From a virus (lineage: Duplodnaviria > Heunggongvirae > Uroviricota > Caudoviricetes), in IMG/VR virus record IMGVR_UViG_643348547_000010, positions 1-45,905 of that record: 45,905 bases of DNA; one strand, 5' to 3'. This document shows, one piece after another, positions 368-3,947 of this stretch; positions within the stretch are counted from its first letter, which is position 1, and every line of letters starts with the position of its first letter. Below the pieces are notes generated by a model, which saw only the letters and a list, made by a program, of their open reading frames with translations, ran no database searches and had not been told where the DNA came from. A program made the translations under genes and the position numbers.

Positions 368-421
368 TGAACCGCCCCGGGAATCCTGGAGACTAAACTT
401 CCTGAGAAAGAGGTAAACAGG

Positions 422-748
422 ATGACTAAAAATACTCGTTTTTCCCCCGAAGTCCGTCAACGGGCAGTCCGTATGGTTCTGGAAAGTCAGGGCGAATATG
501 ACTCACAATGGGCGACAATTTGTTCCATTGCCCCAAAGATTGGCTGTACACCGGAGACTCTGCGTGTCTGGGTACGCCAGCATGAGCGGGATACCGGAGG
601 CGGTGATGGCGGGCTCACCACCGCTGAACGTCAGCGTCTGAAAGAGCTGGAACGTGAAAATCGTGAACTGCGCCGCAGTAACGATATCCTTCGCCAGGCT
701 TCCGCTTATTTTGCGAAGGCGGAGTTCGACCGCCTCTGGAAAAAGTGA
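422..748 (+). CDS. IS629 OrfA (IS3-family transposase N-terminal HTH protein)
   Basis: 108-aa [25 protein letters not shown]..., near-identical to orfA of the copies at 14287 and 15893-16219. Confidence 0.9.
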
Positions 749-1162
749 TGCCACTGCTGGATAAGCTGCGTAAGCTGTACGGGGTCGGACCGGTATGCAG
801 TGAACTACATATTGCCCCGTCAACGTATTACCACTGTCAGCAACAGCGACATCATCCTGATAAACGCAGTGCCCGTGCGCAGCGCGATGACTGGCTGAAG
901 AAAGAGATACTGCGCGTATACGATGGGAATCATCAGGTATACGGTGTGCGTAAAGTCTGGCGTCAGTTGTTACGGGAAGGAATCAGGGTAGCCAGATGTA
1001 CAGTGGCGCGCCTCATGGCGGTTATGGGACTTGCCGGTGTTCTCCGGGGTAAAAAGGTCCGCACTACCGTCAGCCGGAAAGCCGTTGCCGCAGGCGACCG
1101 CGTAAACCGTCAGTTTGTGGCAGAACGTCCTGACCAGTTGTGGGTGGCTGATTTTACTTACG
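745..1162 (+). pseudogene. IS629 orfB, 5' part, interrupted by group II intron
   Basis: Translation identical to intact OrfB (14610-15500) up to ...QLWVADFTY, then diverges exactly at the intron 5' end. Confidence 0.8.
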
Positions 1163-1818
1163 GTGTGCCCGGAGTTCAGGGCGGGCATGGATGCTTAAAT
1201 GAACCGCGAGTCTGTCTGGAATATTGAACCGGTAACTCACGATGAGAAACCCAACAATCCCACCGGGTGTGACGGTGGAGAACCTGAGCGGCAGTGACCT
1301 GCGGCATGCCCGCAGGGTGATGTAACCCGCTGACAACGGGGATTGAGGCGAGATCACTAAGCCGAGATGATCCTCAAGGTTAAGTACTGAAAGGCTGAAG
1401 AACATGAACCCGTTAATCCGCCTCTGTGGGTTGAAAACGTCACCACGGCCTACGTGATCTGACAGGCCGTGCAGGAGGAACTGGCAGTGATACGTAAGCA
1501 CTGCCGGTCGAAGGTGTTTTGACATGTATGCGAAACACCGGGGCAGCAGCGTCTATCACGCTTGCGTTGCTGACTTCTGCCAACTTGCGGCAAGCAAGGA
1601 TAAAGAGTGCGACGGGCAGCCTCCTCAGTATGCCTGAGTCCAGGCAGGTAAACCGGGGAAGGTCAGCGACGGATGTTAAGGGGGCATGGCTCCGATGACG
1701 CGCTGGCTGGCGGAGCTTCCGTAGTAGTCCGCGATGGGGAAAGCCCATTACATGGCGAAGGGAAGCAGTTTGAATGTGTTTGCGACGTGAATTAACTGAC
1801 CTAACGAGGTGAAGACCT

Positions 1819-3342
1819 TTGATAATCAGCGAAATGCAACGCAAGCTTGCCACATGGGCAGCCACCGATCCGTCCCTACGGATTCAACGGCTGCTGCGTC
1901 TAATAACACAACCAGAATGGCTGGCTGAAGCGGCGCGGATCACGCTTTCATCAAAGGGGGCCCATACCCCCGGCGTTGATGGCGTGAACAAAACAATGCT
2001 ACAGGCCAGACTGGCTGTTGAGCTGCAAATCCTCAGGGATGAATTACTCTCAGGCCACTACCAGCCCTTGCCCGCCAGACGGGTTTACATCCCTAAAAGC
2101 AACGGCAAACTGCGACCACTGGGTATCCCCGCGTTGCGGGATCGTATTGTTCAGCGGGCCATGCTGATGGCGATGGAGCCGATATGGGAGAGTGATTTTC
2201 ATACGCTCTCATATGGCTTCCGGCCTGAGCGCAGTGTCCACCACGCGATCCGCACGGTGAAATTACAGCTCACAGACTGCGGTGAAACCCGGGGACGCTG
2301 GGTGATTGAAGGCGACCTGTCCAGTTACTTCGACACCGTACATCATCGACTGCTGATGAAGGCTGTACGCCGCAGGATCAGTGACGCACGTTTCATGACT
2401 CTGCTGTGGAAAACCATCAAGGCGGGACATATCGATGTCGGTCTCTTTCGGGCGGCCAGTGAAGGTGTGCCACAGGGCGGTGTTATATCGCCGCTATTAT
2501 CGAACATCATGCTGAATGAGTTCGATCAATACCTGCATGAGCGCTACCTGAGCGGGAAAGCCAGAAAAGATCGGTGGTACTGGAATAACAGTATCCAACG
2601 GGGCCGAAGTACGGCGGTCAGAGAAAACTGGCAGTGGAAACCCGCGGTGGCGTACTGCCGCTATGCCGATGATTTTGTCCTCATCGTCAAAGGCACCAAA
2701 GCACAGGCGGAAGCCATCAGGGAGGAGTGTCGGGGTGTGCTCGAAGGCAGTCTGAAACTCAGGCTGAACATGGATAAGACTAAAATCACCCATGTTAATG
2801 ACGGCTTTATCTTTCTGGGGCACAGGATCATTCGCAAACGCAGTCGTTATGGCGAGATGCGAGTGGTCTCAACGATCCCGCAGGAGAAAGCCAGAAACTT
2901 CGCCGCATCGCTGACAGCACTGTTATCAGGCAACTACAGTGAAAGCAAAGTCGATATGGCTGAACAACTCAACCGAAAACTGAAAGGCTGGGCCATGTTC
3001 TATCAGTTCGTTGATTTTAAGGCCAAAGTCTTCAGTTATATCGACCGTGTCGTGTTCTGGAAGCTGGCTCACTGGCTGGCCCGCAAATACCGTACAGGTA
3101 TCGCTTCCCTGATGAGGTGGTGGTGTAAATCACCGAAACCGGGTCAGAGCAAAACGTGGGTTTTATTTGGTAAAACCAATCACGGCAAGCTCAGCGGCGA
3201 AATACTGTACCGGTTGGTGGGGCAAGGCAAGAAGCTGTTCCGCTGGCGGCTACCCGAAGGTAATCCCTATCTGAGGACGGAGACCAGAAACACGTATACA
3301 TCGCGCTTTACAGAAGTGGCAATGGCGTTCGCCAGCATTTAA
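1819..3342 (+). CDS. Group II intron-encoded reverse transcriptase/maturase
   Basis: 507-aa ORF with RT palm motifs (FDTVHHRLL, YADDFVLIV) and C-terminal maturase-like region; no HNH/En motifs visible. Confidence 0.9.
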   Translation: MIISEMQRKLATWAATDPSLRIQRLLRLITQPEWLAEAARITLSSKGAHTPGVDGVNKTMLQARLAVELQILRDELLSGHYQPLPARRVYIPKSNGKLRPLGIPALRDRIVQRAMLMAMEPIWESDFHTLSYGFRPERSVHHAIRTVKLQLTDCGETRGRWVIEGDLSSYFDTVHHRLLMKAVRRRISDARFMTLLWKTIKAGHIDVGLFRAASEGVPQGGVISPLLSNIMLNEFDQYLHERYLSGKARKDRWYWNNSIQRGRSTAVRENWQWKPAVAYCRYADDFVLIVKGTKAQAEAIREECRGVLEGSLKLRLNMDKTKITHVNDGFIFLGHRIIRKRSRYGEMRVVSTIPQEKARNFAASLTALLSGNYSESKVDMAEQLNRKLKGWAMFYQFVDFKAKVFSYIDRVVFWKLAHWLARKYRTGIASLMRWWCKSPKPGQSKTWVLFGKTNHGKLSGEILYRLVGQGKKLFRWRLPEGNPYLRTETRNTYTSRFTEVAMAFASI

Positions 3343-3347
3343 ATGGA

Positions 3348-3381
3348 GAGCCGGATGCGCTGAAAGGTGCACGTCCGGTTC
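3348..3381 (+). ncRNA. Group II intron domain V
   Basis: GAGCCGGATGCGCTGAAAGGTGCACGTCCGGTTC: 34-nt hairpin with AGC triad and GNRA-type loop, located just after the IEP stop and followed by a short domain VI-like hairpin. Confidence 0.8.
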
Positions 3382-3432
3382 GGGGAGGAGAGGCAGGGAA
3401 ATAGTCCGACTACGCCCTGCCTCTTACTCTAC

Positions 3433-3905
3433 TCAGCACATGGCAGGGGGTCGTCTATGTGGCGTTCATCATTGATGTGTTTGCCGGATACATCGTGGGG
3501 TGGCGGGTCTCATCGTCTATGGAAACGACATTCGTGCTGGATGCTCTGGAGCAGGCGTTATGGGCCCGTCGACCGTCCGGCACAGTCCATCACAGTGATA
3601 AAGGTTCTCAGTATGTATCGCTGGCCTACACACAGCGGCTTAAGGAAGCCGGATTACTGGCATCAACAGGAAGTACTGGTGACTCGTATGACAACGCGAT
3701 GGCGGAGAGCATCAATGGCCTTTACAAAGCGGAGGTAATACACCGTAAGAGCTGGAAAAACCGTGCAGAAGTGGAACTGGCCACACTCACGTGGGTGGAC
3801 TGGTATAACAATCGACGATTGCTGGAAAGGCTGGGCCATACTCCTCCGGCAGAAGCAGAAAAAGCTTATTATGCTTCCATCGGAAACGATGATCTGGCAG
3901 CCTGA
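3433..3905 (+). pseudogene. IS629 orfB, 3' part (downstream of intron)
   Basis: Translation ...[20 protein letters not shown]...NDDLAA matches C-terminal part of intact OrfB; three nucleotide differences within 17 nt after the junction. Confidence 0.8.
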
Positions 3906-3947
3906 GTTCACAGATAAAACACTCTCCAGGAAACCCGGGGCGGTTCA

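Follow-up and report, generated by a model that had tools for sequence, protein, structure and literature searches.

An E.c.I4 group II intron nested in the transposase gene of an IS629 copy at the yfgI locus

The beginning of the window (the whole 45,905-nt stretch of DNA that was analyzed) is occupied by a host gene interrupted by an insertion sequence, with all genes and elements described below lying on the plus strand. Positions 1-4233 were 100% identical to Escherichia coli AR_0013, in whose annotation both halves of the interrupted gene (5' part, 1-367; 3' part, 3952-4124) are listed as DUF5384 family protein; by its position between yfgH and guaA the gene corresponds to yfgI, and joining the two halves restored a single open reading frame. 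The intervening element (368-3947) is flanked by the 4-bp target-site duplication GCCC generated by IS629, read directly from the sequence at 364-367 and 3948-3951. When its two outer parts (368-1162 and 3433-3947) were joined, the resulting 1310 nt matched the intact IS629 located at 14233-15542 from end to end and without gaps (40 mismatches, 97% identity). The remaining 2270 nt constitute an insert spanning exactly 1163-3432, directly after ...GATTTTACTTACG, and since the flanking bases at either end differ, its boundary is positionally unambiguous. A 2270-bp insertion in orfB had been proposed from a comparison with the intact copy, and the ungapped alignment of both exons confirmed it.

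Apart from the insert, the element presented the hallmarks of IS629, namely a length of 1310 nt, the ends TGAACCGCCCC...GGGGCGGTTCA, TG...CA inverted repeats and the duplicated GCCC. Exon 1 (368-1162, aligned to 14233-15027) includes the left inverted repeat, orfA (422-748), the frameshift region and the first 139 codons plus one nucleotide of orfB, which lies in the -1 frame relative to orfA; Pfam matches in this part were HTH_Tnp_1 on OrfA and HTH_21 on OrfB. An ALIL pseudoknot was recognized over the frameshift region (703-819; Rfam RF01497, 116.2 bits), so that orfA and orfB are predicted to be linked through programmed -1 frameshifting that an element downstream stimulates, as expected for the IS3 family. 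Exon 2 (3433-3947, aligned to 15028-15542) carries the remainder of orfB (stop at 3905), most of the rve domain and the right inverted repeat. The insert is oriented in the sense direction relative to orfB, and its removal restored the orfB frame, with joined exons collinear with the intact IS629 and 100% identical to natural intron-less alleles. The original prediction had also pointed to three substitutions within 17 nt of the 3' junction; two of them (3445, +13; 3449, +17) do fall in that interval, while the third (3450, +18) lies just beyond. In many genomes, and also at the yfgI locus, all three occur in IS copies that lack the intron and show 100% identity over the junction; they are thus unrelated to the intron and belong to the intron-less IS allele.

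The insert was recognized as a complete group II intron. Its ends, GUGUG at 1163-1167 (the GTGTG previously described) and ...CUCUAC at 3432, agree with the expected 5' GUGYG and 3' AY, and nearly all relatives have GTGYG at the corresponding place. RNAalifold analysis of 55 family members placed domain I at 1168-1657 (closing helix 1168-1171/1654-1657), with compensatory changes in most of its helices, domain II at 1661-1708 (a 9-bp helix, 1661-1669/1700-1708, with all nine pairs compensated across the family), and domain III at 1715-1766 (helices 1715-1720/1761-1766, 1727-1729/1754-1756 and 1733-1738/1744-1749, also with compensatory changes). Overall, 87 of the 139 stem pairs in the consensus displayed compensatory double changes. 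Domain V, with an AGC triad (3349-3351), a GAAA tetraloop and a 2-nt bulge, was nearly invariant in the family and was located by both Rfam RF00029 and domain-V-only models at 3348-3381, exactly where it had been anticipated; the Rfam RF00029 model (Intron_gpII) matched 3346-3432 with 64.9 bits, the gathering score being 40. Domain VI had been described as short and ending in ...CTAC. The ending was as stated (CTCTAC, up to 3432), but the domain is a 47-nt hairpin (3384-3430; minimum free energy stems 3384-3387/3427-3430 and 3388-3398/3415-3425) with a bulged branch-point A at 3426 in the Rfam alignment. With the open reading frame placed in domain IV, all six domains were obtained, with covariation supporting the secondary structure; failure to fold in this way had been named beforehand as one outcome that would overturn the reading.

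Domain IV contains a gene for a reverse transcriptase/maturase (1819-3342), whose product would comprise 507 amino acids from TTG 1819 or 502 from ATG 1834. The start is ambiguous, because RefSeq (WP_001189111.1) uses the ATG while the TTG is preceded by a better Shine-Dalgarno sequence (GAGGTGA, 1806-1812). The reading frame is intact and its product identical to the widespread WP_001189111.1. The anticipated 507-aa protein with a YADD motif and without endonuclease was borne out by matches to Pfam RVT_1 (1.5e-34) and GIIM (1.3e-10), and by NCBIfam equivalog TIGR04416 (340.9 bits, cut-off 300); the C-terminal 102 amino acids matched no Pfam family even at E ≤ 10, from which the lack of an HNH/En domain follows. 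The best relative among solved structures was LtrA (5g2x, E 2e-52).

Compared with E.c.I4-8 of strain E24377A (NC_009801, 3341658-3343928; Table S3 of PMC3522654), the intron showed 4 mismatches over 2270 nt (99.8% identity), and several E.c.I4 copies in that published table span 2271 nt since they include the +1 T (PMC3522654). The first 1764 nt were 99.7% identical to ykfC of K-12, that is, E.c.I4-tr1, with a match extent exactly as published. The assignment to bacterial class A was taken from the literature through this sequence identity with E.c.I4; class A is among the En-minus classes (PMC3552965, PMC4244168). Of 5426 complete E. coli genomes, 1404 (about a quarter) contained the same 3580-nt IS629::intron composite with at least 99% identity, and it is routinely annotated as ltrA; the full-length intron occurred in 1873 genomes and also in 1519 plasmids, which belong to several enterobacterial genera. 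A 3580-nt structure that recurs at such identity in more than a thousand genomes is not a product of chance. Nested elements of the E.c.I4 type have been described in E. coli since 2002. The intron was catalogued copy by copy in 2012, its published targets being a set position within the transposase genes of the IS3-family elements IS629, IS911, ISEc16 and ISEc31 (PMC3522654), and a literature search found no experimental paper on it. Judged by its sequence, the region is an ordinary and already known copy of this well-catalogued intron at its usual IS629 site.

The intron interrupts orfB within the codon that comes next after the motif D-F-T-Y, between its first and second bases; we take this motif to hold the first catalytic Asp of the transposase. 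The break falls 13 residues into the catalytic domain: a Pfam rve match (1.4e-27, residues 127-223) was obtained on the spliced OrfB only, in which the junction follows residue 139. In the unspliced copy, the reading frame of orfB meets a stop after 21 codons of intron sequence (ORF 745-1227), so that only OrfA and a shortened OrfAB lacking the greater part of the catalytic domain are encoded. Because the intron splits the gene just after D-F-T-Y, transposase would be made from the composite only after splicing, and the dependence of its production in cis on splicing is inferred from this arrangement and by analogy with RmInt1/ISRm2011-2. The original prediction that transposase can be made only if the intron splices accordingly holds in cis, but not as a general statement, given that transposase could be supplied in trans: the ends of the composite could still be moved by the product of intact copies such as that at 14233-15542. 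The net effect of the intron on IS629 is probably a dampening one.

Recognition of the 5' exon was analyzed by comparing every 5-mer of the intron with every junction window in an unbiased manner, and EBS2 emerged as the top signal (z about 6). EBS2 (AACGUC, 1436-1441) forms the terminal loop of a hairpin (1429-1431/1442-1444), and its five-pair core (1437-1441) pairs with IBS2 (GAUUU, 1150-1154; exon positions -13 to -9). Covariation between EBS2 and IBS2 was detected at -9 and -10, the pair at -10 being A:U in 32, G:C in 6, U:G in 3 and C:G in 1 of 51 relatives. IS629 itself shows a U x C mismatch with EBS2 at -10, and is hence not the best-matched target. Domain I thus contains EBS2 and EBS1-like loops complementary to the 5' exon, and the working EBS1 would be one of two loops. 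Loop A (AUACGUAAG, 1490-1498) closes a 10-bp stem (1480-1489/1499-1508) according to the minimum free energy structure and the family alignment, and offers seven of seven pairs with IS629, with A 1492 opposite exon +1 and 1493-1498 opposite exon -1 to -6; IBS1 (CUUACG, 1157-1162; exon -6 to -1) forms six Watson-Crick pairs with these last positions, and five of six with loop B. Loop B (ACAUGUAUG, 1522-1530), on a 9-bp stem (1513-1521/1531-1539), is conserved in all relatives.

Both loops are conserved and covaried with the exon: among relatives that are not phylogenetically independent, the observed value was reached by 7 of 5000 permutations for loop A and by 12 of 5000 for loop B, and taking the better of the two loops for each intron (49 relatives) beat all but 1 of 5000. 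One exon carrying CCUGGC (L026) was compensated in loop B only. In E.c.I4, loop A fits IS629 (...ACUUACG) perfectly and loop B fits a second common target (...ACGUAUA) perfectly, being also the best loop for IS911. These patterns hint, with considerable doubt, that loops A and B are alternative exon-binding sites by which one intron reads two codon spellings of D-x-T-Y-(I/L/V), and one of them may have another, structural role. If true, two EBS1-type loops would broaden the retrohoming range, a use of which no description was met in a literature search that had the intron database outside its scope.

At least three IS629 alleles harbored the same intron, as did IS911 and another IS3-family element, and an ectopic copy lay in yegJ. 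In metagenomes it adjoined 16 different 5' exons, each of which encodes W-x-x-D-(F/V/I)-T-Y. This variety of hosts points to independent homing events; the insertion phase was the same in IS629, IS911 and the 16 metagenomic exon variants. E.c.I4 targets sit in non-essential, mobile DNA, and as the bases with which the intron pairs spell the most conserved transposase motif, targets stay available. As a separate observation, related introns down to 66% protein identity, from Proteobacteria and Nitrospira, were inserted in the same codon phase next to a conserved D-x-T-Y motif in several families of DDE transposases, and 49 of 49 relatives targeted the same motif.

The arrival of the intron could be followed at yfgI, where an IS629 insertion was present in only four genomes, two of them filled (AR_0013, OZ546943) and two empty (CE10, N32). 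Over all 1963 nt, the empty alleles of CE10 and N32 showed 100% identity to the present sequence with its exons joined and its flanks included. Since these strains carry the identical IS629 at the same yfgI site without the intron, the intron arrived in place, and the comparison of alleles shows that IS629 was already in yfgI and that the intron was added afterwards, precisely. That filled and empty alleles coexist within a single small lineage indicates that the event was recent. A second homing site is available in the intact IS629 about 10 kb from the composite (14233-15542; junction would be 15027/15028): it has the same orientation at a distance of 11.6 kb, agrees with the occupied site at every position between -24 and +12, and is demonstrably usable, this IS allele being occupied by E.c.I4 in strain JEB8. 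As it stays empty, either the activity of E.c.I4 is not high or the arrival is very recent.

The same pattern at yfgI would result if the intron had been copied from another intron-bearing IS629 by homologous recombination or gene conversion instead of reverse splicing. Genomes of this lineage offer about 30 IS629-type places, other composites differ by only about 0.1% over 3580 nt, so that a conversion tract would be invisible, and the chimeric IS629/IS911 and IS629/ISEc31 hosts of E.c.I4 reported by Leclercq and Cordaux imply recombination between intron-bearing IS copies. We nevertheless consider this origin unlikely, given that the exons on both sides match the empty CE10/N32 allele at 100% over the full IS, including all allele-specific bases, and that the intron occurs in many IS alleles and species and at an ectopic non-IS site without IS homology. 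The persistence of the empty homing site could also mean that this copy is a dead relic which neither splices nor moves and permanently inactivates IS629. According to Leclercq and Cordaux, most genomes are far from saturation, and decayed copies do exist elsewhere (L005 with an internal stop, a badly degraded copy of 84% identity in a Salmonella plasmid, the truncated ykfC of K-12). Against such a fate, which seems improbable here, stand the intact reading frame, the GUGUG end, domain V triad, branch-point A and EBS loops identical to those of copies distributed over at least 11 target variants, and the recent event suggested by the polymorphism.

It is equally improbable that splicing acts as an evolved, tuned switch coupling IS629 transposition to conditions favoring the intron, the functional gloss of the original prediction. 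The dependence of transposase production on splicing in cis would agree with it, and the authors of the RmInt1 work argued that the dissemination of the host IS is restrained by its intron (PMC4238363). However, RmInt1, the best-studied parallel, splices in ISRm2011-2 with an efficiency of only 0.07% (PMC3035460, PMC4238363), a near-complete block that makes it a brake on the IS and not a coupling device. Moreover, the sequence gives no indication of regulation, intact copies could supply transposase in trans, and the presence of the same intron in many unrelated IS and in a host gene is what would be expected of a parasite choosing safe, conserved targets. An assembly or chimera artefact has a negligible probability: no support for it was found, the boundaries are base-exact, and the identical 3580-nt structure in the 1404 complete genomes, from many laboratories, and in plasmids excludes it.

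Considering these lines of evidence together, the locus is very probably a mobile class A E.c.I4 intron, encoding an RT/maturase without endonuclease, inserted in sense orientation at the standard orfB homing site of an IS629 that had itself transposed into yfgI. In the mechanism proposed for this nested element, the IS transcript would carry the intron, and the RT/maturase would bind it as a maturase and assist the ribozyme in excising itself as a lariat through the branch-point A at 3426. Exon ligation would restore orfB, and -1 frameshifting at A-AAA-G, with the ALIL pseudoknot as stimulator, could yield the OrfAB transposase. The excised lariat-protein particle would find further targets by RNA-DNA base pairing, with EBS2 (1437-1441) on exon positions -13 to -9 and an EBS1 loop on -6 to -1, and would reverse-splice into one DNA strand; the subsequent DNA copying of the intron would be primed from replication, such a primer being needed because the protein has no endonuclease.

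Taken by itself, the composite matters little, being a textbook nested mobile element that the NCBI annotation pipeline names automatically. Its value for annotation is that two "IS3 family transposase" pseudogene fragments and an ltrA gene can be read as one unit disrupting yfgI. Furthermore, CE10 and N32 without the intron, and AR_0013 and the present sequence with it, make up a natural before/after pair that could be used to date or measure homing. Points for specialists are the D-x-T-Y codon-phase targeting shared by the whole related lineage, and the two EBS1-like loops in their RNA.

With respect to known systems, E.c.I4 and its Shigella twin S.f.I1 have nearly the same sequence, a length of 2270 nt (as in the IAI39 copies), an intron-encoded protein lacking the En domain and the same insertion point in IS629 orfB; nothing of substance differs from the catalogued E.c.I4, to which the present case adds a further copy in the chromosomal yfgI::IS629 locus that AR_0013 also has. 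RmInt1 in ISRm2011-2 of Sinorhizobium meliloti is likewise a mobile group II intron without the En domain, inserted in sense orientation in an IS transposase gene and making IS function dependent on splicing (PMC3035460, PMC4238363), yet it belongs to class D instead of A, has an IS630 host and another target motif, and its splicing and mobility have been measured. Ll.LtrB and its protein LtrA from Lactococcus lactis (class ML, IIA) share the RT and maturase core and the general logic of splicing and retrohoming, whereas LtrA has domains for DNA binding and endonuclease activity that the E.c.I4 protein lacks and primes on the cleaved bottom strand, and the ribozyme subclass differs. IStrons (PMC4227781) similarly combine a self-splicing RNA with a DNA transposon; in them, however, an IS lies inside or beside a group I intron and both move as one unit, while here the group II retroelement is an independent invader of an IS already in residence.

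The two IS629 segments that flank the insert (368-1162 and 3433-3947) were joined, after positions 1-4300 of the window had been read, and aligned to the second IS629 copy at 14233-15542. The two sequences, of 1310 nt each, aligned in a single ungapped block with 40 mismatches, 31 of them in the 795-nt 5' part and nine in the 515-nt 3' part, and a repeat finder gave the same result. The 2270-bp insertion in orfB proposed in the original prediction was thus borne out. The insert (1163-3432, 2270 nt) follows ...GATTTTACTTACG, starts with GTGTG and ends with CTCTAC, and its boundary is unable to slide because the flanking bases differ at either end. 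IS629 itself lies between copies of a 4-bp target duplication, GCCC (364-367 and 3948-3951), and the two halves of the gene that it interrupts rejoin into one ORF. In the annotation of AR_0013 the interrupted gene encodes a DUF5384 family protein and is located between yfgH and guaA; from its position on the K-12 map, we take it to be yfgI. As a whole, the observation was confirmed with minor corrections, and its interpretation was supported in structure.

By sequence identity, the intron is E.c.I4. A 1764-bp fragment, E.c.I4-tr1, was described in prophage CP4-6 of MG1655 (Leclercq and Cordaux 2012, Table S2; PMC3522654), and BLAST of the window intron matched K-12 ykfC over query positions 1-1764 (99.7%). 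Another copy, E.c.I4-8, was placed at NC_009801 3341658-3343928 (Table S3; PMC3522654); this stretch of E24377A, taken as the reference copy for the intron comparison, showed 4 mismatches with the window intron over 2270 nt. The fifteen E.c.I4 copies of 2270 nt reported in IAI39 (PMC3522654) have the same length as the window intron, while several published E.c.I4 spans measure 2271 nt because the first exon base (T) was included. At the E24377A locus carrying E.c.I4-8 in IS911 (L006), the frames of IS911 and IS629 are restored only if the intron is taken as 2270 nt long. Toro and colleagues grouped E.c.I4 with S.f.I1 in class A, a class without a D/En region that was credited in 2013-14 with only three near-identical members (PMC3552965, PMC4244168).

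The ORF at 1819-3342 matched the Pfam domains RVT_1 (1.5e-34) and GIIM (group II maturase, 1.3e-10) and passed the NCBIfam equivalog TIGR04416 (340.9 bits, cut-off 300), and its closest solved relative was LtrA (5g2x, 2e-52). The last 102 residues gave no Pfam match even at E<=10, so the protein lacks an endonuclease domain, and the RT/maturase without endonuclease that had been claimed from the sequence was recovered. The RefSeq start is ATG 1834 (502 aa, WP_001189111.1); TTG 1819 is preceded by a good Shine-Dalgarno sequence, and therefore either start is possible.

Minimum free energy folds of the single sequence (5' 650 nt, and an ORF-deleted construct) gave long-range pairings in disagreement with the family consensus and were used for local hairpins only. 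Since such folds were unreliable, relatives were collected by a scan with the intron-encoded protein, one genome per species, which yielded 311 loci (protein identity from 100% down to 66%), and an RNAalifold consensus was built from 55 of them in window numbering. In this consensus, domain I corresponds to 1168-1657, domain II to 1661-1708 and domain III to 1715-1766, followed by domain IV with the ORF, and compensatory double changes were present in 87 of the 139 base pairs in stems of at least 3 pairs. Domains V and VI showed almost no variation in the family. The Rfam group II intron model RF00029 matched 3346-3432 (64.9 bits vs a gathering score of 40) and placed domain V at 3348-3381, exactly where it had been predicted; domain VI, by contrast, had been called short and is a 47-nt hairpin (3384-3430) with a bulged A at 3426. 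The intron thus has the expected six-domain fold of a group II intron, the outcome on which the original prediction had staked its assignment.

Target recognition was analyzed by comparing the E.c.I4 sites in IS629, IS911, another IS3-family element and the host gene yegJ, together with those of the 49 relatives for which both exons were available (5' junctions of loci L017-L087). The motif x-x-D-(I/F/V)-(T/S)-Y is encoded at each of the 49 junctions, and the codon that follows, a hydrophobic one, is split by the intron after its first base. These relatives (intron-encoded protein identity 66-93%), from Proteobacteria, Nitrospira and others, all reside in DDE transposase genes, which, judged by eye from their motifs, appear to include IS3, IS481-like (QTDFTYLKVIGW) and IS6-like (DETYIKVKGK) types. 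In the window, the junction falls after residue 139 of spliced OrfB, which leaves 13 residues of the Pfam rve domain upstream of it, and the Asp of the D-x-T-Y motif presumably opens the DDE triad known from IS3-family transposases and retroviral integrases. The family-wide targeting of this motif emerged as a side observation of the comparison. An ectopic E.c.I4 was also found in E. coli 22AR0118 (L003:1466-1500), in the chromosomal non-IS gene yegJ (DUF2314), where the target ...TGGCTTACGGATGTCACTTATT/C (slash, junction) encodes F-W-L-T-D-V-T-Y and so resembles the transposase motif by coincidence.

An unbiased scan of all intron 5-mers against all junction windows gave its strongest covariation (z about 6) between 1436-1441 (AACGUC), located in a small terminal loop of the family consensus, and exon positions -13 to -8. 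At exon -10 the pair across relatives was A:U in 32 cases, G:C in 6, U:G in 3 and C:G in 1. On this covariation, EBS2 is assigned to 1436-1441; its pairing with IS629 includes a U x C mismatch at -10, and with IS911 five of five positions are paired. A different EBS2 candidate, 1350-1356 (GAGAUCA), lies in an 11-nt hairpin loop and forms 7 pairs with IS629, but it failed the covariation test: across 51 relatives the observed value was reached by 249 of 2000 permutations, and position -10 was paired in only 18%.

Two tandem hairpins in domain I, A (1480-1508; loop 1490-1498, AUACGUAAG) and B (1513-1539; loop 1522-1530, ACAUGUAUG), carry similar 9-nt loops and are both found in every relative; each loop is complementary to the final six nucleotides of the 5' exon together with position +1. 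The observed pairing with exon positions -6 to +1 was reached by permuted exons in 7 of 5000 trials for loop A and 12 of 5000 for loop B, and in just 1 of 5000 when the better loop of each intron was taken, counts that overstate independence because the sequences are related. In one related intron (L026), whose exon reads CCUGGC, the compensating change is in loop B only. A covarying partner within the intron (e.g. alpha-alpha') was searched for both loops and none was found; CUUAC of domain VI was considered as a partner of loop A, and this domain is (almost) invariant in the family. The first 32 nt of E.c.I4, matched exactly, adjoined 16 different 5' exons in metagenomes, and the EBS2 and loop sequences were unchanged across at least 11 of these target variants. 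Loop A paired at six of six positions with the IS629-type exon ...ACTTACG (42 copies) and at four of six with both the IS911-type ...ACCTATA (34 copies) and ...ACGTATA (11 copies); the respective values for loop B were five, five and six of six. These patterns fit, without proving it, a role of loops A and B as two alternative EBS1 sites.

The presence of E.c.I4 in IS629 is already known and very common. Among 5426 complete E. coli genomes, 1404, with ST131 EC958 among them, contained the 3580-nt IS629::intron composite at a coverage of at least 80%; its annotation there is ltrA together with a pair of IS3-family transposase fragments. The full-length intron alone was found in 1873 genomes, in 1519 plasmid records (Escherichia, Klebsiella, Salmonella, Enterobacter and others) and in only two phage records. 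Some E. coli genomes and plasmids (H26, H32, H50) carry an intron copy that is itself split by IS421 (IS4-like), resulting in three nesting levels. An 84%-identical relative, unannotated in its record, was observed in the Salmonella Infantis plasmid pR21.1147_195k (L007:1495-3738), at the same motif (W-V-T-D-I-I-Y) of another transposase gene; with a broken ORF, a 5' GTATA and a degenerate EBS1 stem, it was too decayed to be of use for covariation and was dropped.

Insertion of IS629 at the yfgI site was restricted to four complete genomes, with the intron in AR_0013 and OZ546943 and without it in CE10 and N32, both of which matched the intron-removed window query (1963 nt) in one piece with 100% identity. 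Given this split, the IS arrived before the intron, which was added to the resident copy recently, within one small lineage. The original prediction had also noted three substitutions within 17 nt of the 3' junction, which holds for 3445 (+13) and 3449 (+17), while 3450 lies at +18. Co-conversion during homing was considered as their source and discarded: the three substitutions belong to an ordinary intron-less IS629 allele, 100% identical across the junction in many genomes, and are therefore unrelated to the intron.

In the intact IS629 at 14233-15542, the homing site matches the occupied one exactly from -24 to +12 and shares its orientation; it is empty at 15027/15028, and the same allele is occupied by the intron in another strain. 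Such an empty site is in line with the low occupancy described for IAI39-type genomes (PMC3522654). This complete copy, on the + strand, abuts a truncated inverted one (15543-16273; IS positions 731 to 1, with a single mismatch over the 731 nt), and the adjoining inverted copies suggest that an IS-mediated event, either rearrangement or deletion, took place within the prophage. Positions 1-4233 are 100% identical to AR_0013, in which guaA comes next, and the window continues with prophage-looking DNA (4234-45905). This region includes Rz-like (4344-4826) and endolysin-like (4823-5617) ORFs, both on the - strand and recognized by eye from their translations, as well as isrK (10103-10179), a C4 antisense RNA (10204-10288) and tRNA-Arg(TCT) (31015-31091).

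The intron lies in the sense strand of orfB and splits the catalytic domain of OrfB, leaving orfA and the ALIL frameshift stimulator (116 bits) intact. The frameshift run reads AAAAAG-TGA in the intron-bearing IS629 (740-748, G at 745) vs AAAAAA-TGA in the intact one (14605-14613); in both, TGG precedes the run and the ALIL pseudoknot comes after it. Expression of the transposase would proceed from the IS transcript through maturase-assisted lariat splicing and exon ligation to OrfAB, produced by -1 frameshift, and the excised particle would home into further copies, where replication would probably provide the primer, as the protein lacks an endonuclease. The original prediction had linked transposition to intron activity, which is fair for the transposase supplied in cis, as the unspliced orfB frame meets a stop 21 codons beyond the 5' end of the intron; in trans, transposase could still come from the intact copy at 14233-15542. 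A tuned coupling of both activities is disfavored by the closest studied case, RmInt1 in ISRm2011-2, where splicing amounts to 0.07% in vivo (PMC3035460, PMC4238363) and the intron was argued to limit the spread of its host IS (PMC4238363); by analogy with RmInt1, the likely outcome for the intron-bearing IS629 copy is silencing.
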